A stretch of 64,000 nt of DNA from an uncultured Candidatus Saccharibacteria bacterium (GTDB lineage Bacteria > Patescibacteriota > Minisyncoccia > Minisyncoccales > UBA5738), in NCBI GenBank assembly GCA_964470995.1, contig CAYYEP010000004.1, positions 2,846 to 66,845 of the forward strand, read 5' to 3'. The notes beneath the pieces are model-generated. The model had not been told where the DNA came from, did no database searches, and saw only the letters and a program-made list of their open reading frames with translations. Position 1 is the first letter of the stretch. Every line of letters begins with the position of its first letter. The translations under genes and the position numbers were made by a program. Shown one piece after another: positions 1 through 9,534 of this stretch.

Positions 1-998
1 AATCTGAACAGCAAAATAATTTTGAAATACTATTAACATCCGATAAAATTTCTGAGGGCTTCAATCTTAACCGCGCAGGAATGGAGATTAATTACGATAT
101 TCCTTGGAACCCGGTGCGAGTTATTCAGAGATTGGGACGCATTAATCGCATAAGCAAGAAAGTTTTTGCAGACCTTTACATCGTAAATTTTTTCCCAACC
201 GAAAGAGGCGCAGAGTTAGTGAAGTCTCGCGAGATTGCAGCAAATAAAATGTTTCTTATACATACCGCTCTTGGCGAAGATTCAAAGATTTTTGATATTG
301 ACGAAGAACCAACGCCCGCAGGATTATTTAACCGTTTCAAGCAAAATCCAGATGAACAGGAAGGGGAGAGTTTTTACACTAAAGCGCTTAAAGAATTCTT
401 GAAGATAAAAAGAGAGCATCCTGAGATAATTGATAGTCTGAAAAACTATCCTCCAAGGATCAAGGTAGCCAAAAAATACAGAGAAGGCGAGCTATTGGTA
501 TTTTTCAAGAAAGGTCGTCTATACGTAAGCGCCGCCAAAGTTACCAACGATAAGATCGAGCCATATCAAACTACTTTTGAAGATACTTTCGATAAAATTG
601 TTTGTCTTCCAAACGAAGAATCTCTGGATTGGAACAATGAACAATTTTGGCAAGCTTATAGGGCAATCCAAGATTTCAAGGAGTACCGCTTGGGTCCAAT
701 CAGCGAACAAAGTCTTGAGCAGAAAGCGTTAAACAACCTCGATTCCCTTATAAAGAGTCCGCGGGAGGAGCTAATGCCGTTTAAGAGTTTTTTGCGCACA
801 CTTCGCGAAGATATTTTAGACTATGGAACATTAGTAGATTACACCTTGCGCCGTATTGCGGATTTTAGCGAGAATAGCATTAACGATATTCAAAATTTAT
901 TGAATGAACTGGGCGAAAATTATTTGATTACAGAAAAAAAATTACAGAAAGATCAGGAGAGGGAAATTATAATCGCGATTGAAAATCAAAAAATATGA
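1..998 (+). CDS. SNF2-family helicase, C-terminal part (5' end outside window)
   Basis: The frame is open from nt 3. The translation ...ILLTSDKISEGFNLNRAGMEINYDIPWNPVRVIQRLGRINRI shows helicase motifs V-VI with the SNF2-type D-x-P-W-N-P ... Q-R-x-G-R-x-x-R signature. The stop overlaps the next start (ATGA at 995-998). Confidence 0.8.
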   Translation, partial: SEQQNNFEILLTSDKISEGFNLNRAGMEINYDIPWNPVRVIQRLGRINRISKKVFADLYIVNFFPTERGAELVKSREIAANKMFLIHTALGEDSKIFDIDEEPTPAGLFNRFKQNPDEQEGESFYTKALKEFLKIKREHPEIIDSLKNYPPRIKVAKKYREGELLVFFKKGRLYVSAAKVTNDKIEPYQTTFEDTFDKIVCLPNEESLDWNNEQFWQAYRAIQDFKEYRLGPISEQSLEQKALNNLDSLIKSPREELMPFKSFLRTLREDILDYGTLVDYTLRRIADFSENSINDIQNLLNELGENYLITEKKLQKDQEREIIIAIENQKI

Positions 999-3900
999 GC
1001 CAAGCCCGCGAAATTTTGGAGGATATAATAAGAAATTTTTCACCCGAAAAATTTGGACGGTTCTTTCGCGAAAAAAGCCGTCATTTTGTTATCTTAAACG
1101 AAGAATATTCCTTTTGCGATGATATTGATTTTGAAAGCGGAATAAAATTAGGTGAAATTAATTTTCCCGATAGTGATAGTTTAATTATATGTAATTTTGA
1201 GATAAAGAAAGGACTTTCCGAGCGGGCTGGTAAAAAAGTGCAATATGAAAAAGCCAGGAATATTTTAAAACTTGTAGAAAACCAAAAATATGCTGGCGGG
1301 ATTTTCATTTTTCACGACAAAAATGGTAATTTCCGTTTTTCATTGGTATATCGCGAATCGGCGGGAACTCACCGGCAATGGAATAATTTTCGTCGCTTCA
1401 CCTATTTTGTAAGCAAAGACCTCACAAACAAAACTTTCCTACAAAGGATCGGAGAAGGTGATTTGGATTCATTGGATGATATTAAAGACTCTTTTTCGGT
1501 AGATAAAGTTACCAACAAATTTTTTGACGAATTTCGGCAAATATTTGATAAAACAAAACAAGAATTTGAGAAAACAAACAAAAATACCGTTTGCCTATGG
1601 TTAAAAGATAGATATTCGGATGATGATTATAGAGAGCAAATAAACAAATTTACTTTTACATTCTTGGGGCGCATAATTTTTCTTTACTTTTTGCTGCGTA
1701 AGGGCTGGATTGAGAACAAAAAAGATTACATTAGGAAGATAGTAGAAGATAAGAATCAGATAAATTTATATTTTAATATCTTCGAGCCGTTATTTTTTGA
1801 AGTATTCGCCAGGAAAGAGGATGAAAGAAGTCGGGAAATAAGGAGCAGCTATAAAGATACTCCATATCTCAATGGCGGGCTTTTTGAGCGAAGTGAAATA
1901 GAGGGCGCAATGCACAGAGCAGGAATTTCGGTTCTTTTCGAAGATAAATTTATTAGAGAAATAGTCCTCGAATTTTTTGAAGCATATAATTTTACTGTTG
2001 ATGAAAATTCGCCGGATGACCAAGAAGTGTCAATCGATCCGGAGATGCTTGGGAAGGTTTTCGAAAACACACTGGCAGAAGAAGAAAGAGGCAAAAAGGG
2101 TACTTTTTATACGCCAAGAGAGATAGTTCACTTTATGGTGAAAGACTCTTTATGGCAATATTTGAAAAACGAAACTGATATTAAACCAGAGCTATTGCAC
2201 GAGCTTATTTATCATGAAGATTTTGATTTAGATATTTTACCGAAAGATAAAATTCGCCAGATAGATACAATATTAGAAGGTATCAAAATTCTTGATCCAG
2301 CCGTAGGTTCGGCTGCTTTTCCGGTGGAAATGATGCAAGTCTTAGTGAAGATTCGCAAACGTCTTAATGTAAAGGTTGGAAACAATATTAATGAAGTTAC
2401 TCTTAAAAAGAGCTTCATTAAGAACAATTTATACGGCGTAGATATTGATCCTTCAGCAATAGAGATCGCCAAATTACGTTTATGGTTATCCTTGATTGTT
2501 GATTATGAAAAATCCGAGGCTGAACCGTTGCCTAATCTTGATTTTCAATTTCGGGTAGGAAATTCTTTGCAGGAAAAAATTGATGATGTAGATATCTTTG
2601 GGGAAAATAACTCAGGAATACAAGAATTATTCAAGAAAGAGTCTGATTATGAAAGAGTAAAGATTCGAATGATAGATATTAAAGATCAATTTTATACCGA
2701 AGACGAAGCTAAAAAAAGAAAACTTAAGAAAGAATTTGATAATCTTGAAAGGCAGTTAATAGAAAAGGCATTAACAAAGCACCGTCAAAGCTTAGACGCA
2801 CAATTAAAGAATTCGCATTTCGCAAAGATAGCAAAGGAAGTAGAAAAAACTATTGCCAAGATAAATCAATTAGAGCAAAAAATTAAGGACGGTACTTATA
2901 AGTTATTTAAACCCGACTTTCACTTCTCTGAAGTTTTTGATCGTAAAGACCAAAATAATAAGAAAATTGACGGCTTTGATATTGTTATTGGCAATCCTCC
3001 ATACGGAGTAAAGATCGAAGAAGATATTAAAGAATGGCATAGGCTTGGGAGCAAAGATAGTTACGGTGTATTTATTTCCACTGCCTTAAAAAGATTTTTA
3101 AGGCCCGGAGGTGTTTTGTCGTATATCGTTTCAGACACTTGGCTAACAATAAAAACGCACAAGCCTTTAAGAGAGCAAGTTTTGTCGAAACAACTACATA
3201 AAGTAATTCGTGTGCATCAAGATTGTTTTGAAGCAACGGTAAATGCTTGCATAGTTAGCTTAACAAATAAGCTTAATGATAATGGAAAATTATTAGGGGC
3301 AGACTTAACAAATATTTCAACCCGAAAGGAAGTTGAAGAAATGAGGAGTAAATTATATCATCTATCTGATTTTATTAATCAATCAACTCCCAAATTTGCG
3401 GTATATGAGTATGACCAAGATTTAATCAAAATAAATTCTAATATTCCTATCTTTATAGGAAGTCCGAAATTATTTTTGTTAATGAATGATACAACCTGTA
3501 AAATAAAAGAAAGGGAGGTTTGTGGTAAAAAAATAAAGGTAAGATGTATCAATTTCAATAATAAAATTATCGAGCTGGTTAGATTCGGCGACATATCAGA
3601 TGTAAGAGTGGGGTTGCAAACAGGGAAAAATAAGGCTTATCTCTTTCAAAATCAAAATACACGCGGTAGTTACCGCGACATTAATCATTTTAAAGAATTT
3701 CTTATAACAAGTGCCGATCTAAATAAAATCGTAAACAATGATGGATTGCGTTTAAAAATTATCTCGAAGGGATTTCATAAATCGATAAATGATAAAAGTT
3801 TCGATAGCGATCTATGGTTCAGTGGAAAATACATTATACCTTACGATAAGGGCGGAGAAAGCGACACTGAAACTGGCTGGCTACCAAATTATTATGTACC

Positions 3901-4426
3901 AACGGACTTTTTCATTGATTGGAGTTGTGAAGCAGTAAAAAATCTTTCAACAAACGAAAATGCTAGATTTCAAAATACTGATTATTATTTTAAAGATGGG
4001 CTTACCCTATCCTATACAGGTCAATATGCTCCAAACTTAAGATTAAATTCAACGAGTGTTTTTGATGTCGGTGGTTCCTGTATCTTCCCTGATATTGTCG
4101 ACAAGTACCAAATCCTCGGGAATTTTGTTTGTAAAATAACAAAATATTTTGGCAAAAATTGGATAGATCATTCGGTTAACTTTCAGATAGATGAAAATAA
4201 AGAGTTACCGATGTTAATTAGTGAGAATAAGGAAATTATCAATATTGTTCTTAAGATTATTAATGCTCAAAGGAAAAACTGCCGTTATGACTACATGTCC
4301 AACGAACAAAAAGAGATTGATAAATTAGTTTACAAAATGTACGGGCTGAATGCCGATGATATTAAGGAAGTCGAAACTTGGTATGCAAGACGTTATCCAA
4401 AGTTAGCAAGATTCTGCAATATTTAA
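995..4426 (+). CDS. Fused restriction-modification-type enzyme: N-terminal PD-(D/E)xK-like motif + gamma-class N6-adenine DNA methyltransferase (Eco57I/MmeI/PglX-like) + large C-terminal target-recognition region
   Basis: 1143 aa. It carries P58-D59-x9-E69-I-K71 (INFPDSDSLIICNFEIKK, nt 1166-1207), SAM motif I ILDPAVGSAAFP, FQFRVGNSL and catalytic motif IV DIVIGNPPYG. A C-terminal region of about 450 aa follows, as in type IIG/IIL enzymes. Confidence 0.8.
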   Translation: MSQAREILEDIIRNFSPEKFGRFFREKSRHFVILNEEYSFCDDIDFESGIKLGEINFPDSDSLIICNFEIKKGLSERAGKKVQYEKARNILKLVENQKYAGGIFIFHDKNGNFRFSLVYRESAGTHRQWNNFRRFTYFVSKDLTNKTFLQRIGEGDLDSLDDIKDSFSVDKVTNKFFDEFRQIFDKTKQEFEKTNKNTVCLWLKDRYSDDDYREQINKFTFTFLGRIIFLYFLLRKGWIENKKDYIRKIVEDKNQINLYFNIFEPLFFEVFARKEDERSREIRSSYKDTPYLNGGLFERSEIEGAMHRAGISVLFEDKFIREIVLEFFEAYNFTVDENSPDDQEVSIDPEMLGKVFENTLAEEERGKKGTFYTPREIVHFMVKDSLWQYLKNETDIKPELLHELIYHEDFDLDILPKDKIRQIDTILEGIKILDPAVGSAAFPVEMMQVLVKIRKRLNVKVGNNINEVTLKKSFIKNNLYGVDIDPSAIEIAKLRLWLSLIVDYEKSEAEPLPNLDFQFRVGNSLQEKIDDVDIFGENNSGIQELFKKESDYERVKIRMIDIKDQFYTEDEAKKRKLKKEFDNLERQLIEKALTKHRQSLDAQLKNSHFAKIAKEVEKTIAKINQLEQKIKDGTYKLFKPDFHFSEVFDRKDQNNKKIDGFDIVIGNPPYGVKIEEDIKEWHRLGSKDSYGVFISTALKRFLRPGGVLSYIVSDTWLTIKTHKPLREQVLSKQLHKVIRVHQDCFEATVNACIVSLTNKLNDNGKLLGADLTNISTRKEVEEMRSKLYHLSDFINQSTPKFAVYEYDQDLIKINSNIPIFIGSPKLFLLMNDTTCKIKEREVCGKKIKVRCINFNNKIIELVRFGDISDVRVGLQTGKNKAYLFQNQNTRGSYRDINHFKEFLITSADLNKIVNNDGLRLKIISKGFHKSINDKSFDSDLWFSGKYIIPYDKGGESDTETGWLPNYYVPTDFFIDWSCEAVKNLSTNENARFQNTDYYFKDGLTLSYTGQYAPNLRLNSTSVFDVGGSCIFPDIVDKYQILGNFVCKITKYFGKNWIDHSVNFQIDENKELPMLISENKEIINIVLKIINAQRKNCRYDYMSNEQKEIDKLVYKMYGLNADDIKEVETWYARRYPKLARFCNI

Positions 4427-4473
4427 ACGCGTTCTTATCCGAAGGATAAAAGATAACAAGAACAATTACGGAT

Positions 4474-6300
4474 ATGTATATAAAGGAGCTTTATATTAAG
4501 AATTTTCGTGGTGTAGAGGAATTGAATTTTGAATTTAAACCAGGAGTGAATGTATTGATCGGCAAGAATAATTCTTCAAAAACTGCACTCATTGATGCTA
4601 TTCGTCTTTGCCTTTCAGGAAAGAATCCAGACGGAAAGCGAGATATATGGTTTGATAAGGATAAGGATTTGAGAATTAATTTATTAAGCAAACCACCAAA
4701 AAGGGAAGAAGAATCTTTTTTTAAATTTATTTTAGGCTTTAATGCTTCCGAATTAAATGTCGCGGATAAGGAAGCATTAAGGGAGGCATCAAAAAAAGGC
4801 GAAGGCCAAAATCTTTTTGACGATTTAAAGATTAAATATACTGCTCCATATTTTCACCTAGCAAGTTTGAAAGACGGAGAAATAATATTTACAATTAATG
4901 TTCGTTATTACATCGAAAAAAGCACAGTTGATGGGCAAGAAAGAATAAAGAGTGAATTTTGGGTAGGCGATGATAAGCAACGATTGATTCCCCAGGAGAT
5001 GTGGGAATATTTTTATGTGGTCTATTTGCAGCCGTTAAGAGATGCTGTTGCTGCTTTGCAACCTCCTTATAGTAAATTAGGAGAACATTTTGAGTTTATT
5101 TCAGGAACAAAAAGTGAAAGGGATGAATTGGCCGAAAAAATTCATAAAAAAATGGATGAAGCTGATGGATGGAAAGCACTTAGACTAAAAGGGATGAAGA
5201 ATATAAACGAAGTTCATTTCCAGAACCTATTGGATGCTGACAACCAAGATCAAATAGACATCGGCTTTTTGCCATTTGATTTTCGTAGGATCGCGAATCA
5301 ACTTAGGATTAGATTGCCGTATGGCGAAAGCGCGACCAGGAAAGATAATGATTTCTTTGAATTAGATCAAAATGGACTGGGATACAATAATCTAATATTC
5401 GCTTCAACCGTACTGGCAAATATTGAAGAAAAGAAAAATGATAATATAAGTTCATTTCTACTCATCGAAGAACCCGAAGCTCATCTACATCCACAACTTC
5501 AAAATCAATTTTTCCAATACCTTAATGATTTAAGTAGCAGGGGTTATCAAATTTTTTTGACATCTCATTCTCCAACGATAACAGCAAAGGCCAATATAAA
5601 TAGAATTATAGTGTTGCAAGGCTTAAACCGTCAGGTATCCGTATGTCATATATCAAAGCTTAAACTTGAGGAAAGTGCAAAATTTTTGCATAAGTTTCTT
5701 GATGTTACTAAGTCTCAACTATTTTTTGCGAATGGCGTTATCTTCGTTGAAGGATATTCTGAAGCAATCTGCCTAGAGATATTTGCGAAGAGGCTAGGTT
5801 TTGATTTAGTTAGAGCAGGAATTGAGATCGTTAATATTCGCGGTGTTTCGTTTAGACATTTTCTTAAACTTTTTAACTGCGACAATGGATTGAAAAATCG
5901 TTTCGCAGTCATTACCGATAGAGATACAGACAAAGGAAAAAGTAAAGATCGGATTGAAAAATTGGAACGGATGATAAAGGATAATTCAAATGGAATAATA
6001 GCCGTATCTGGTCAAACTAATTTTGAAGCAGAGCTTTATACCTCGGAAAATAGAACTGCTATCGATGGGATTTGGCAAAATATAAGGCCAGAAGCTGGAG
6101 GCAAAGACATTGAATATTTTAAAGATGATCCCCAAAAGTTTGCAGAGAAAGTTAACGACCTCGATTTGAAAACTGAATTGGCGTTTAATTTATCAGAAAC
6201 ACTTCAAGATCATAGAAATAGTTTCGTAACTCCGAAATACATCGAAGAAGCAATACGTTTTGTGATAACAGGAAATAAAGATGAGCCTAAGACGGCCTAG
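4474..6300 (+). CDS. gajA: OLD-family ABC-type ATPase + Toprim nuclease (Gabija GajA-like, class 2 OLD)
   Basis: 608 aa. Walker A is GKNNSSKT. Walker B and H-loop are LLIEEPEAHLHPQLQ ... FLTSHSP. The Toprim glutamate context is GVIFVEGYSEAI and the DxD is AVITDRDTD. A UvrD-type helicase gene follows immediately. Confidence 0.8.
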   Translation: MYIKELYIKNFRGVEELNFEFKPGVNVLIGKNNSSKTALIDAIRLCLSGKNPDGKRDIWFDKDKDLRINLLSKPPKREEESFFKFILGFNASELNVADKEALREASKKGEGQNLFDDLKIKYTAPYFHLASLKDGEIIFTINVRYYIEKSTVDGQERIKSEFWVGDDKQRLIPQEMWEYFYVVYLQPLRDAVAALQPPYSKLGEHFEFISGTKSERDELAEKIHKKMDEADGWKALRLKGMKNINEVHFQNLLDADNQDQIDIGFLPFDFRRIANQLRIRLPYGESATRKDNDFFELDQNGLGYNNLIFASTVLANIEEKKNDNISSFLLIEEPEAHLHPQLQNQFFQYLNDLSSRGYQIFLTSHSPTITAKANINRIIVLQGLNRQVSVCHISKLKLEESAKFLHKFLDVTKSQLFFANGVIFVEGYSEAICLEIFAKRLGFDLVRAGIEIVNIRGVSFRHFLKLFNCDNGLKNRFAVITDRDTDKGKSKDRIEKLERMIKDNSNGIIAVSGQTNFEAELYTSENRTAIDGIWQNIRPEAGGKDIEYFKDDPQKFAEKVNDLDLKTELAFNLSETLQDHRNSFVTPKYIEEAIRFVITGNKDEPKTA

Positions 6301-8044
6301 CGAAAAACAACAACATATAATTGATAGTATTCGCTCTAATAAAGGGAAATTTATTATTAGAGCTTGTCCTGGAAGCGGAAAAACATTTACCGTTGCCAGC
6401 CTTTTTTGTGGTGAACTTAGAGAATGGAATAACCGCGGCGAGGGGATTGCAGTGGTCTCTTTTACGAATGTTGCACATCAAGAGATTCATCAAAAAATTG
6501 AAGAAATAATGGGGAGCCGTCTTTCTTTAGGGTATCCTCATTTCATAGGGACAATTGATTCTTTTTTAAATCAAAATATTTTTTTACCATTTGGTTGCGA
6601 ATCAATGGAGTATACTTCCAGACCAAAACTCGTTGGAAGACCACATGGCGAATGGCATTATCTACCAGGGATTAAATGGTCAAGTTATTTTGAATATATT
6701 AACTATAAAATTGATGGATCGTTTGAGAGTATAGATTGCAGAATGGCCGGTATCGATAGTGCCGTTGAAAAGAAGAATAGAGCAGATATCATTAATGCGA
6801 AAAAATTAGTAAATAAATCTGGATTTGCCACCCAGAGCGATGCGAACTATTTTTCCTATAGAACATTAGCTAATAATCCAAAACTCTCTAAGTTAATCGC
6901 GACGAGATATCCTTACCTTTTAATTGATGAAGCCCAAGATTCGACCGAAATACAAATGGCTATAATCGATATATTAATAGCGAATGGATTGAAAAAAATA
7001 GTGCTTGTTGGCGATCCGGATCAAGCAATATTTGAATGGAATAATGCAAAACCAAAGTTGTTTGAGGATAAATTTAAAAATGACGGGTGGAAAAACTTTA
7101 AGTTAGATGAAAGCTACAGAAGCTCGGCTAATATTTGCAAATTTGCTTCAAAATTTAGAGGTGGTGAAGGATTCAGTCCTTCGGATTTGTGTGATTCTAA
7201 AGATTGTTCATTTATGCCTTGCTTTAAATCTTATGAGGATAGCAAAGATATCCAAAGCATAAAGAATGAATTTAAAGATATTTGTTTGAGAGAAAAGATT
7301 GATTTTGCATCGAAAGCGACGGCAATTTTATATAAAGCTTCAACTGATTTACCGGTATTAAATAACTGCGAAGATAAAGATAGCGGAAAGGTGAATAAGA
7401 AAAAAAAGTACATTGACTGGGGAAAATGTAAATTGCCTTATACACAAGATTTATGTAAAGCGAAATATTTATTTGATTACGGCAATTTTGAACAATCTGG
7501 AAAATTATTTATTGATGTTGTCTCCAAAAAGAAGTACAAAAAGGCAACTTTAAATGCGGAACAAATAAATCAAATCATTTTAGGCTATGGGGGTAAAATG
7601 AATCTCTTTATAAAAGGCATTAACGTATTAAATGAATTATCTCCAATTAGCAATAAGAAAATTTCAGACTGGATCAAAGAAAACGGTAGTTATTTCCCAG
7701 GAGAAGACTTAAATTTGTTTGGAGATAACGTTTTTGATGACATTTTTTCTTATGGCAAACCTCAAACAATAGACGAAAAATTACCTTTGTATTCAACGAT
7801 ACACGGAGTGAAGGGAAGAACTTTTGATGCGGTTTTAGTATATTTAAAAAGTAAAGTAAAAGACGGAAAAAATTTCATTACTTATTTGAAAGATGGCTAT
7901 TTGTTATCCGACGAGAAAATGGAAGCCATGCGGATTGTTTACGTTGCAATTACCAGGCCTCGTAAAATACTAATGCTTGCTGTTCCCAAAAAAGATATAG
8001 ATTTCTGGAAAAATTATTTTAAAAGCACAATACCGTCAGAATGA
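6281..8044 (+). CDS. gajB: UvrD/PcrA/Rep-type superfamily 1 helicase (Gabija GajB-like)
   Basis: 587 aa. Motifs seen: ACPGSGKTFT (Walker A), LLIDEAQDS (motif II), VGDPDQAIFEW (III), SYRS (IV), TIHGVKGRTFDAV (V), VYVAITRPRKIL (VI). It overlaps gajA-like by 20 nt. Confidence 0.8.
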   Translation: MSLRRPSEKQQHIIDSIRSNKGKFIIRACPGSGKTFTVASLFCGELREWNNRGEGIAVVSFTNVAHQEIHQKIEEIMGSRLSLGYPHFIGTIDSFLNQNIFLPFGCESMEYTSRPKLVGRPHGEWHYLPGIKWSSYFEYINYKIDGSFESIDCRMAGIDSAVEKKNRADIINAKKLVNKSGFATQSDANYFSYRTLANNPKLSKLIATRYPYLLIDEAQDSTEIQMAIIDILIANGLKKIVLVGDPDQAIFEWNNAKPKLFEDKFKNDGWKNFKLDESYRSSANICKFASKFRGGEGFSPSDLCDSKDCSFMPCFKSYEDSKDIQSIKNEFKDICLREKIDFASKATAILYKASTDLPVLNNCEDKDSGKVNKKKKYIDWGKCKLPYTQDLCKAKYLFDYGNFEQSGKLFIDVVSKKKYKKATLNAEQINQIILGYGGKMNLFIKGINVLNELSPISNKKISDWIKENGSYFPGEDLNLFGDNVFDDIFSYGKPQTIDEKLPLYSTIHGVKGRTFDAVLVYLKSKVKDGKNFITYLKDGYLLSDEKMEAMRIVYVAITRPRKILMLAVPKKDIDFWKNYFKSTIPSE

Positions 8045-8322
8045 ATTACTTAGTTTCCAATTTATTAAGAATTCATACACCGCACCATTCACAGGTTCAA
8101 TGGCTCATCAGGAATTATTTTTTACAGATTGGATATGATTCGCGGACAGAAAAACAGGTTTGGCCGGGGCGTAAATCGCGGATAGACGTGTGGGCTCAAA
8201 GGGGTAGTTATTCTATAGGGGTGGAAGTTGATGACTGCACGATTCGCATTAATTCAATTGAAAAGTTAAACGCACTCAAACCGTCTCTGGCGGTTTTTGG
8301 TTGTGTCTATTCTCTTTGTTGA
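8041..8322 (+). CDS. Small hypothetical protein coupled to GajB-like gene; weak restriction-endonuclease-fold-like core
   Basis: 93 aa. Its ATG overlaps the helicase stop (ATGA at 8041-8044). The segment RIDVWAQRGSYSIGVEVDD resembles the D...(D/E)xK strand pair of PD-(D/E)xK or YraN-like proteins, but the Lys position is Asp. Confidence 0.45.
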   Translation: MNYLVSNLLRIHTPHHSQVQWLIRNYFLQIGYDSRTEKQVWPGRKSRIDVWAQRGSYSIGVEVDDCTIRINSIEKLNALKPSLAVFGCVYSLC

Positions 8323-8868: not shown

Positions 8869-9171
8869 ATGAAACCGGAATATAGCAAAAAAAACTATCG
8901 TGAGGAAGAATTCGCGCAAACCGCGGCGATTTTGAAACTATTGGCCCAAGAAAACCGGCTTAAAATACTTTGCATTTTGCAAGGCGGCGAACATTGCGCC
9001 TGCCGGATCATCAAACATCTTGGATTGCCGCAAAATTTGGTTTCGCACCATTTGAACAAATTGAGGAAGGCGGGAATGATCGCGGGCCGCAAGGACGGGG
9101 TTTGGATCCATTATTCGCTAACCGAAAAAGGGAAAAAAATAACGGAAAATATTTTTAAAATAATCAAATGA
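8869..9171 (+). CDS. ArsR/SmtB-family metalloregulatory transcriptional repressor
   Basis: 100 aa. Winged-HTH signature LKILCILQGGEHCACRIIKHLGLPQNLVSHHLNKLRKAGMI, including a C-x-C in the metal-site position. Confidence 0.85.
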   Translation: MKPEYSKKNYREEEFAQTAAILKLLAQENRLKILCILQGGEHCACRIIKHLGLPQNLVSHHLNKLRKAGMIAGRKDGVWIHYSLTEKGKKITENIFKIIK

Positions 9172-9228
9172 AATATTCCAGCATTCTTGAGAATGTTGGA
9201 ATGTTGTTAATTGCTAATAATCAAAAAA

Positions 9229-9534
9229 ATGGAGAACAAAATTATTTCAATTGAGGTTATCGGATCGGGATGCGCCAATTGCAAGAAACTGTACGAATTG
9301 GCGGTTTTGGCGGTTAAAGAGTTAAATATCGGGGTTGAGGTTGTATATTCTAATGAAGTTCAAAAGGCTTTGGCAATGGGCGTCCTGCAATTGCCGGTAC
9401 TGGCGGTGAACGGCAAGGCCGTGCTGACCGGGACGGCAGATGCTGATAAGGTTAAAAAAGCGTTGAGCCAGCGTAAGAGCGGCGATAATCAATCGGAATG
9501 CTGTCCTTGCGGCGGGGATTGCGGCTGTTTATAA
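9229..9534 (+). CDS. Thioredoxin-fold 'redox-active disulfide protein 2'-like protein with Cys-rich C-terminal tail
   Basis: MENKIISIEVIGSGCANCKKLYE contains a CxxC. The tail is SECCPCGGDCGCL. ATG at 9229 is preferred over the TTG at 9211 used by the ORF track. Confidence 0.7.
   Translation: MENKIISIEVIGSGCANCKKLYELAVLAVKELNIGVEVVYSNEVQKALAMGVLQLPVLAVNGKAVLTGTADADKVKKALSQRKSGDNQSECCPCGGDCGCL

Follow-up and report, generated by a model that had tools for sequence, protein, structure and literature searches.

Defense systems guided by a DNA methylase, including type III, type ISP, BREX, DISARM, and MANTIS, are actively studied, and a key question is what couples a hemimethylating methylase to the separate effector that it licenses. 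MANTIS depends on such a methylase, and its component MtsD, a PLD-helicase, forms dimers that share one active site; in the MtsD dimer, as in BfiI and SauUSI, dimerization builds one PLD active site (10.64898/2026.09.23.753747). The MANTIS component MtsB has been placed in family DUF3780 (PMC12839542) or DUF3870 (10.64898/2026.09.23.753747). True MmeI-family enzymes have no consistent neighbor genes, and Morgan et al. 2009 speculated that the N-terminal domain of MmeI homologues without PD-ExK docks a separate helicase and nuclease; YeeA showed no endonuclease activity, and the YeeA/YeeB/YeeC group was never characterized (PMC2731913). Here, we analyzed a helicase gene and a DNA methylase gene at positions 1-4426 of a 64,000-nucleotide (nt) stretch of contig CAYYEP010000004.1 from an uncultured Candidatus Saccharibacteria bacterium, this whole stretch being called the window. 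Our reading, to which we give a probability of about 0.68, is that this region covers two-thirds, at the downstream end, of a restriction-modification-like defense module that has 2 genes and depends on ATP, and in which the N-terminal domain of the methylase would serve as an adaptor to the helicase.

No named or characterized two-gene system of a methylase and an SNF2 helicase with an HKD nuclease domain (HKD-SNF2) was found in the literature searched, only passing mentions, and restriction-modification reviews do not describe the pair. Milman et al. 2023 include a table row with Cj0031-like methylases beside PLD and SNF genes (PMC9881135), Shah et al. 2018 listed "C3a139 HKD+Snf2" as a neighbor of type III CRISPR loci, and NCBI labels examples as "SNF2-related protein" and "N-6 DNA methylase," e.g., on a Parabacteroides distasonis plasmid. 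The pair is best read as an unnamed form of ATP-dependent, methylase-guided restriction whose outline Morgan et al. 2009 anticipated.

Gene structure and domain content of the helicase-methylase pair

The first 8.3 kilobases (kb) of the window were read as 5 co-oriented open reading frames (ORFs) on the forward strand. Frame 3, already open at the window edge (3-998), encodes the C-terminal 331 amino acids (aa) of the helicase, the 3' end of the HKD(PLD)-SNF2 helicase-nuclease gene (1-998, forward strand; aa 786-1116 of 1116), matched by Pfam Helicase_C with E 3e-9. This part holds motifs V-VI (QRLGRINR, nt 126-149) and a conserved C-terminal extension of ~270 aa; the N-terminal HKD nuclease and lobe 1 of the ATPase are encoded further upstream, outside the window. 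The full gene was obtained by exact look-up of the 1143-aa methylase, which returned 2 Logan contigs with genes identical to those of the window, reaching 2.5 kb further upstream. The complete helicase has 1116 aa (L001:186-3536) and matches the Pfam families PLDc_2, RE_NgoFVII, SNF2-rel_dom, ResIII, and Helicase_C. PLDc_2 and RE_NgoFVII occupy aa 52-192, behind which come SNF2-rel_dom/ResIII, Helicase_C, and the extension.

A single HxK motif was identified in the helicase, within the HKD signature HAK...GSSN at aa 131-156. Among 30 homologues with 50-91% identity, the HKD residues H131, K133, and G153-S-S-N156 were invariant, as were the ATPase motifs GxGK285, D357-E-x-H360, TATP386-389, and Q827-R-x-x-R831. 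Judging from this conservation, the likely candidate for the conserved nuclease of the pair is the helicase HKD domain, which is encoded outside the window. A sequence search of the PDB with the helicase returned generic SNF2/DEAD ATPases only, and the best curated helicase models were DrmD, BrxH, HmaA, and "PLD_Helicase," all far under their cut-offs. The 185 nt upstream of the start codon are noncoding and contain a terminator-like hairpin (L001), so the operon begins at the helicase gene.

The helicase stop codon TGA (996-998) overlaps the methylase start codon ATG (995-997) in an ATGA (995-998, forward strand), bearing out the preliminary description, which had placed the helicase stop over the start of the 1143-aa protein. 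This is the layout expected for translational coupling, and the same 4-nt overlap was found again in ~10 homologous loci (L003, L004, L006, L007, L014, L020, L028, L036, and L038). The second gene (995-4426, forward strand) encodes a gamma-class N6-adenine DNA methylase of 1143 aa with a predicted built-in C-terminal recognition region, as assigned from Pfam, PADLOC, and the AlphaFold2 (AF2) fold. Its architecture resembles that of PglX and MmeI. From its start, the forward strand encodes an N-terminal alpha/beta domain (aa 1-140; 995-1414), delimited on the AF2 model, containing D59/E69/K71 (nt 1169-1207) and proposed as the adaptor. It is followed by a helical linker (aa 141-340; 1415-2014; helices in the model), which includes the Pfam domain DUF7814 at aa 208-314. 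The methyltransferase catalytic domain (aa 341-780; 2015-3334) was assigned by invariant motifs, alignment to M.TaqI, and secondary structure. The C-terminal region (aa 781-1143; 3335-4423) is presumed from structural alignment to PglX/BrxX to hold a target recognition domain (TRD), with a helical bundle at the C-terminus.

The S-adenosylmethionine-binding motif I LDPAVGSAAF was located at aa 433-442 (DPAVGSAAF at nt 2294-2320) and NPPY, motif IV, at aa 667-670 (nt 2993-3004). Both had been named in the preliminary description, and both are conserved, with D434, P435, A436, G438, S439, and N667-P-P-Y670 invariant in 40 orthologues of 49-74% identity. Pfam matched the methylase to Eco57I (E 2e-26) as well as to N6_Mtase, MmeI_Mtase, and DUF7814, and the best PADLOC model was REase_MTase_IIG (E 1e-57), whose alignment begins only at aa 217. 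The PglX and DrmMI models matched as well, under their curated cut-offs. The full-length AF2 model had a mean predicted local distance difference test score (pLDDT) of 84 and a predicted template modeling score (pTM) of 0.82, and its closest PDB folds were BREX PglX/BrxX (E 6e-24 over ~1050 columns), followed by CamA, DrdV, MmeI, and BpuSI. In the PDB sequence search, the methylase matched M.TaqI around NPPY only.

A C-terminal region behind the methylase motifs is present as first described, and ~360-380 aa stand after the catalytic domain. The C-terminal 408 aa had no meaningful Pfam match, and the C-terminal region (aa 781-1143) was 15-25% identical between loci whose helicases were 60-91% identical. 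Overall, the two-gene unit of a separate SNF2 translocase subunit and a gamma-class methylase with a C-terminal recognition region was upheld. Between motif I and NPPY, the model also shows a coiled-coil-like helical hairpin of ~100 aa (aa 551-632, nt 2645-2890), preceded by a low-confidence loop (aa 536-549); this hairpin could be another protein-protein contact.

Pairing of the 2 genes across genomes, metagenomes, and viral contigs

We scanned genomes, one per species, with the helicase and obtained 44 loci from more than 15 phyla; the flanking ORFs up to 10 kb away were clustered. The helicase and the methylase were the only 2 conserved clusters in the flanks, and both genes were identified in 29 of 30 decidable loci, usually adjacent and often with the 4-nt overlap, sometimes with 1 or 2 unrelated small genes between them. 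A metagenome scan with the methylase alignment returned 80 loci of 26-65% identity, 65 of them decidable. An HKD-SNF2 relative was present in 64 of these 65, even at 25-30% identity, lying immediately upstream in 46, immediately downstream in 5, and within a few genes in 13. Further, 11 IMG/VR contigs carried the helicase, 9 with an adjacent methylase and 2 ending inside the helicase gene. The HKD-SNF2 helicase and the ~1100-aa methylase thus form a nearly obligate pair, and the family, which makes up ~1,900 clusters when grouped at 50% identity, occurs in many phyla and also on viral contigs.

Across ~95 loci, whose flanks extended up to 10 kb, no third conserved gene cluster was found, and DUF499, DUF3780, PglZ, BrxC, DrmA, and DUF1998 were not seen among the neighbors of the pair. 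Of the large genes tested in the flanks, most have housekeeping roles, among them carbamoyl-phosphate synthase, Ile-tRNA synthetase, PurL, and trehalose synthase. Because such neighbors are absent and the scores lie below the cut-offs, the pair is a self-contained module rather than a piece of DISARM, BREX, Hma, or MANTIS in their present definitions. The upstream region, which had been singled out for inspection for DISARM and BREX genes, showed no canonical operon of either kind; with only 2 genes conserved, flanks that are often housekeeping, and a hairpin upstream, the view of a self-contained pair outside such operons was strengthened. Nor does the helicase belong to an unrelated upstream operon.

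In ~9 related loci, unrelated small genes were inserted between helicase and methylase. By their sequence features, these resemble RhuM, Abi, DUF1016, DUF3800, IS200/REP-transposase, AlbA_2/Schlafen, and nucleotidyltransferase-like genes (L008:13318-15000, L009:13360-14145, L018:10794-11861, L027:10743-11654, L030:13269-13829, L040:13281-13829, and L015:3606-4570). They differ from locus to locus and were rejected as a third component. Gene insertion hotspots are also seen in type I operons, and the hma operon is reported to show the same insertion-hotspot behavior. On one IMG/VR contig (L129), the gene of a 1241-aa methylase is followed closely, in the opposite orientation, by a methylase fragment of 155 aa, which by analogy with Cj0031-like methylases may be an invertible specificity cassette (PMC9881135).

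The N-terminal domain of the methylase is not a conserved nuclease

The 1143-aa protein had been described as a nuclease-like/methylase/TRD fusion, by analogy with type IIG enzymes, on the strength of P58-D59-x9-E69-x-K71. These residues are literally present (nt 1169-1207), and the MmeI spacing given for them was right, the MmeI catalytic residues being D70, E80, and K82 (PMC2731913). They are not conserved, however: among the 40 orthologues, D59 was retained in 9, E69 in 17, and K71 in 7. Among 1.84 billion cluster representatives, a profile of aa 1-205 matched 1909 proteins, and in the best 150 of these 1909 at the 50% clustering level, D occurred in 37%, E in 15%, and K in 19%, with the full [DE]-x9-[DE]-x-K triad in 5 of 150 (~3%), the window protein being among the carriers. 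Other positions were conserved in the same 150 representatives, with Q83, R114, and R134 invariant, S116 at 99%, and T147 (near-)invariant.

The AF2 model of aa 1-205 (pLDDT 88) has a predicted alpha-alpha-beta-beta-beta-alpha-beta topology. At E ≤ 1, Pfam matched aa 1-222 to no nuclease family, MmeI_N included, and Foldseek searches with the domain model against the PDB and BFVD returned nothing at E ≤ 0.001. No significant nuclease fold was thus found by either method in the first 200 aa, where the fusion proposed earlier would place one, and the type IIG analogy, which rested on that triad, did not survive. Taken together, these results show that the N-terminal domain is not a conserved nuclease. 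For family members annotated as "type IIG restriction enzyme/methylase," self-sufficient nuclease activity is improbable.

The N-terminal domain as a candidate adaptor to the helicase

We compared 63 loci, each with the window pair; their helicase identity spanned 23-91%. Methylase aa 1-140 followed the helicase in identity in a near-linear manner (Pearson r = 0.98), and the corresponding r was 0.48 for the linker (aa 141-340), 0.16 for the catalytic core, and 0.18 for the C-terminal region. Compared with the window, the locus L003 has a helicase 91% identical and an N-terminal domain 69% identical, with the remaining methylase 20-40% identical, and the drop falls around aa 180-200. Equally related helicases were found with different bodies, the methylase body being 62-73% identical to that of the window in L047 and 18-33% in L004. 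Three loci of reversed gene order (L076, L064, and L109), in which the coding region of the N-terminal domain is not beside the helicase gene, sit on the same trend. Further, the domain (aa 1-205) was found solely at the N-terminus of methylases of ~1000-1250 aa among the 1909 representatives.

The simplest reading of these patterns is that aa 1-140 act as a docking or licensing adaptor and functionally belong to the helicase module, as Morgan et al. 2009 had speculated for the MmeI homologues without PD-ExK. The comparison also suggests that methylase/specificity bodies were exchanged behind the N-terminal domain in evolution. We propose only tentatively, at somewhat less than even odds, that the pairs form a distinct and very widespread class of ATP-dependent restriction-modification systems, in which the HKD-SNF2 protein recognizes the adaptor and unrelated bodies (20-35% identical) are swapped. 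Such module swapping, if true, would mean that one effector is re-targeted by exchanging the methylase/specificity body. Conceivably, the adaptor arose by decay of an MmeI-type nuclease domain; if true, this would provide an evolutionary link among type IIL, type ISP, and BREX-related systems.

Proposed mechanism

The system is best read as ATP dependent, with a logic like that of type ISP and type III, and the mechanism proposed here is drawn from analogy with type ISP, type III, and MANTIS. The methylase subunit would read a short, probably asymmetric site, and host DNA would be methylated, probably on one strand. At an unmethylated site, the methylase would recruit or license the motor-nuclease through physical contact with its N-terminal domain of ~140 aa, and the SNF2 motor, driven by ATP, would move along or remodel DNA. 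Because each subunit has one HKD motif, 2 of them would have to come together for an active PLD site, which is the case in BfiI, SauUSI, and the MtsD dimer. Cleavage would occur when 2 single-HKD domains join into one PLD active site, probably as the complexes from 2 sites meet, and the 2-subunit site would thereby provide a natural trigger upon their meeting. The outcome would presumably be defense against phage.

Several points weigh against this reading. The genome locus L005:10001-23315 has an HKD-SNF2 gene with no methylase within 10 kb downstream; the genes behind its helicase are AlbA_2-like and AAA-ATPase-like, and the locus may be a decayed or re-partnered system. The correlation of r = 0.98 rests on related, non-independent loci, and since the coding region of the N-terminal domain adjoins the helicase gene in most loci, genetic linkage alone could give rise to much of this signal. 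Weak Foldseek matches of the N-terminal domain (E 0.006-0.15, template modeling score below 0.3) include several viral proteins annotated PD-(D/E)XK, a degenerate or decayed nuclease-like fold is possible from the model, and the few family members with the D/E/K triad (5 of 150) include the window protein. The PglX-like methylase in BREX mediates exclusion without demonstrated cleavage, and the nuclease activity of MtsD was not reconstituted in vitro (10.64898/2026.09.23.753747). Within L005, ORF17 (1303 aa) was considered as a divergent methylase and rejected, as it has no NPPY and shows no similarity.

The pair appears to be the simplest version of methylase-guided defense, consisting of a methylase and a motor-nuclease without an AAA+ loader, and would suit as a tractable model of methylase-to-effector coupling. 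An adaptor with an exchangeable body, if confirmed, would explain specificity diversification and allow the motor-nuclease to be re-targeted.

The Gabija neighbor and the low-GC island

Guanine-cytosine (GC) content is 34% over window positions 1-8300 vs 44-50% over 8300-64000, with a sharp step that marks the defense genes as a horizontally acquired island. Its right edge falls at ~8.3-8.6 kb, before an ArsR-like gene (8869-9171) and a cysteine-rich thioredoxin-like ORF (9211-9534); no tRNA gene was found in the 64-kb window to mark the boundary. Downstream of the methylase, we identified GajA (4474-6300, forward strand), an OLD-family ABC ATPase with a TOPRIM nuclease (PADLOC E 6e-114; Pfam AAA_15 and OLD-like_TOPRIM), and GajB (6281-8044, forward strand), a UvrD-like helicase (PADLOC E 6e-147; Pfam UvrD-helicase). 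Both PADLOC matches are full length, indicating a complete Gabija system, and the 47-nt spacer between the methylase and GajA (4426-4474) contains no terminator-like site.

Pairs of an OLD-family ATPase and a UvrD-like protein were found directly downstream in the window and in at least 5 very divergent loci (L037:17166-19037, L003:10665-13433, L006:13276-15898, L132:8943-13114, and L136:14494-18677), being 23-30% identical to each other. This recurrent Gabija-like association could represent functional coupling or plain clustering in defense islands. At the end of the low-GC island, a 93-aa ORF without a family match (8041-8322, forward strand) overlaps the GajB stop codon, and a terminator-like hairpin was located at 8278-8296. 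A 168-aa counterpart with 64% identity lies behind the Gabija-like pair in L003 (13443-13949), and by this comparison the window ORF may be a truncated copy at the island edge.

Alternative explanations

The reading closest to the preliminary description takes the pair for a split type ISP or type IIG enzyme, with an active PD-(D/E)xK site (D59/E69/K71) in the 1143-aa chain itself and a helicase that is only a translocase. It draws on the presence of the triad with MmeI spacing, a topology that fits the restriction-endonuclease-like fold, the several weak viral matches annotated PD-(D/E)XK, and the best PADLOC model. We regard it as very unlikely: the triad is found in ~3% of representatives and its single residues in 15-37%, the PADLOC IIG alignment covers the protein only from aa 217, neither Pfam at E ≤ 1 nor the fold search gave MmeI_N or a significant nuclease match, and the partner carries an invariant HKD nuclease. 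More improbable still is that the pair is a fragment or minimal form of class 1 DISARM, BREX, or the DUF499-centered BREX-related (BR) type 2 (MANTIS/Hma), with the rest of the operon upstream. The top helicase models (DrmD, BrxH, HmaA, and "PLD_Helicase") and the PglX and DrmMI matches of the methylase speak for such an origin, and an N-terminal HKD also occurs on BR type-2 helicases (PMC12839542), but the scores reach only 160 of 610 for DrmD, 102 of 1100 for NF042964 (MtsD-like), and 134 of 500 for PglX. The noncoding stretch with its terminator-like hairpin lies directly upstream of the helicase, no third gene cluster is conserved in the ~95 loci, and the large neighbors tested are carbamoyl-phosphate synthase, Ile-tRNA synthetase, PurL, and similar genes.

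It is unlikely, though less so than the foregoing, that the helicase, the methylase, GajA, GajB, and the 93-aa ORF form one system, with the OLD/UvrD pair as a partner or backup effector. The spacer without a terminator-like site, the uniform 34% GC, and OLD and UvrD-like pairs directly downstream in at least 6 independent loci agree with this, and OLD-ABC modules have been described as auxiliary effectors in BREX/BR loci (PMC12839542). Roughly 85% or more of the loci, however, have no OLD/UvrD pair. Gabija is an autonomous two-gene system, and defense genes gather in islands without functional coupling. Between these in probability, and quite unlikely in our judgment, is a non-cleaving system, either BREX-like exclusion or an epigenetic (phase-variable regulatory) methylase, whose motor would remodel or block DNA and whose HKD would not be a DNA nuclease. 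The closest solved fold of the methylase is indeed BREX PglX, Cj0031-like methylases beside PLD and SNF genes undergo programmed inversions (PMC9881135), and MtsD cleavage was not reconstituted (10.64898/2026.09.23.753747). The HKD catalytic residues, on the other hand, are invariant across 50-91% identity. Comparable single-HKD domains are nucleases in BfiI and SauUSI, as is that of NgoAVII. We therefore retain the ATP-dependent, two-gene restriction-modification-like module as the preferred explanation.

Comparison with known systems

Among the described systems, MANTIS, the type-2 DUF499-centered BREX-related system (formerly Gao_RL), resembles the pair in that an N6-adenine methylase (MtsC) gives specificity, an N-terminal single-HKD/PLD nuclease is fused to a superfamily 2 (SF2) ATPase (MtsD), and the logic is restriction-modification-like, as proposed here; hemimethylation has been shown for MANTIS. 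In contrast, MANTIS needs the AAA+ loader MtsA (DUF499) and MtsB, neither of which was identified in the window, in L001, or in the conserved clusters of related loci. The helicase described here is SNF2/DrmD-like, matching NF042964 (MtsD-type PLD anti-phage) with 102 bits vs 1100 and over the helicase C-lobe only, and the methylase differs from that of MANTIS in a dedicated N-terminal domain co-varying with the helicase. Class 1 DISARM shares the domain types, including SNF2 (DrmD), a large N6-adenine methylase (DrmMI), and PLD (DrmC), and DrmD is the best-scoring curated helicase family (NF038317, 159.9 bits vs 610; NF038318, 83.7 vs 950). However, DrmA and the DUF1998 protein DrmB are absent here, the PLD is fused to the SNF2 protein, and there is no space for more operon genes upstream because of the intergenic region with its terminator-like hairpin. 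BREX PglX/BrxX is the closest solved structure and is likewise a single-chain methylase with a recognition region, but the methylase reached 134.5 bits vs a cut-off of 500 for the PglX family NF033452, and no PglZ, BrxC, BrxA, BrxB, or BrxL was identified in the neighborhoods examined.

The MmeI family (type IIL/IIG) has in common with the window methylase the large gamma methylase, a helical arm, motif I before NPPY, and a C-terminal TRD, but the window methylase has neither a conserved D/E/K triad nor an MmeI_N match. MmeI-family enzymes act alone, whereas the methylase here has an HKD-SNF2 partner in 64 of 65 and 29 of 30 loci. The YeeA/YeeB/YeeC group, PD-ExK-less MmeI homologues flanked by a helicase, is close in concept, as the idea of a docking N-terminal domain fits the co-variation; its nuclease is a separate GIY-YIG protein, whereas here HKD is fused to the helicase (PMC2731913). 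SauUSI and NgoAVII/CglI are ATP-dependent PLD restriction enzymes that likewise couple an SF2 ATPase to a PLD nuclease with a single HKD, in which the dimer builds one active site. SauUSI differs in being methylation dependent (type IV) with its own SRA-like reader, and CglI in that R and H are separate proteins; CglI also has a separate conventional methylase.

In its proposed logic, the pair parallels type ISP and type III. Type ISP enzymes (LlaGI and LlaBIII) combine the same activities, namely nuclease, ATP motor, gamma methylase, and TRD, and their behavior, with an asymmetric site and a requirement for 2 head-to-head sites, would be expected here as well. They are single polypeptides with an Mrr-type PD-QxK nuclease and a type-I-like motor, whereas the system described here has 2 ORFs, a PLD nuclease, and an SNF2-family motor. 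Type III systems (Mod and Res) share the proposed two-gene logic, in which the methylase alone recognizes an asymmetric site and the helicase-nuclease depends on the methylase. In type III, Mod is a beta-class methylase with an internal TRD and Res has a C-terminal PD-ExK nuclease; the pair described here departs from this textbook layout in its gamma motif order, C-terminal TRD, and N-terminal HKD.

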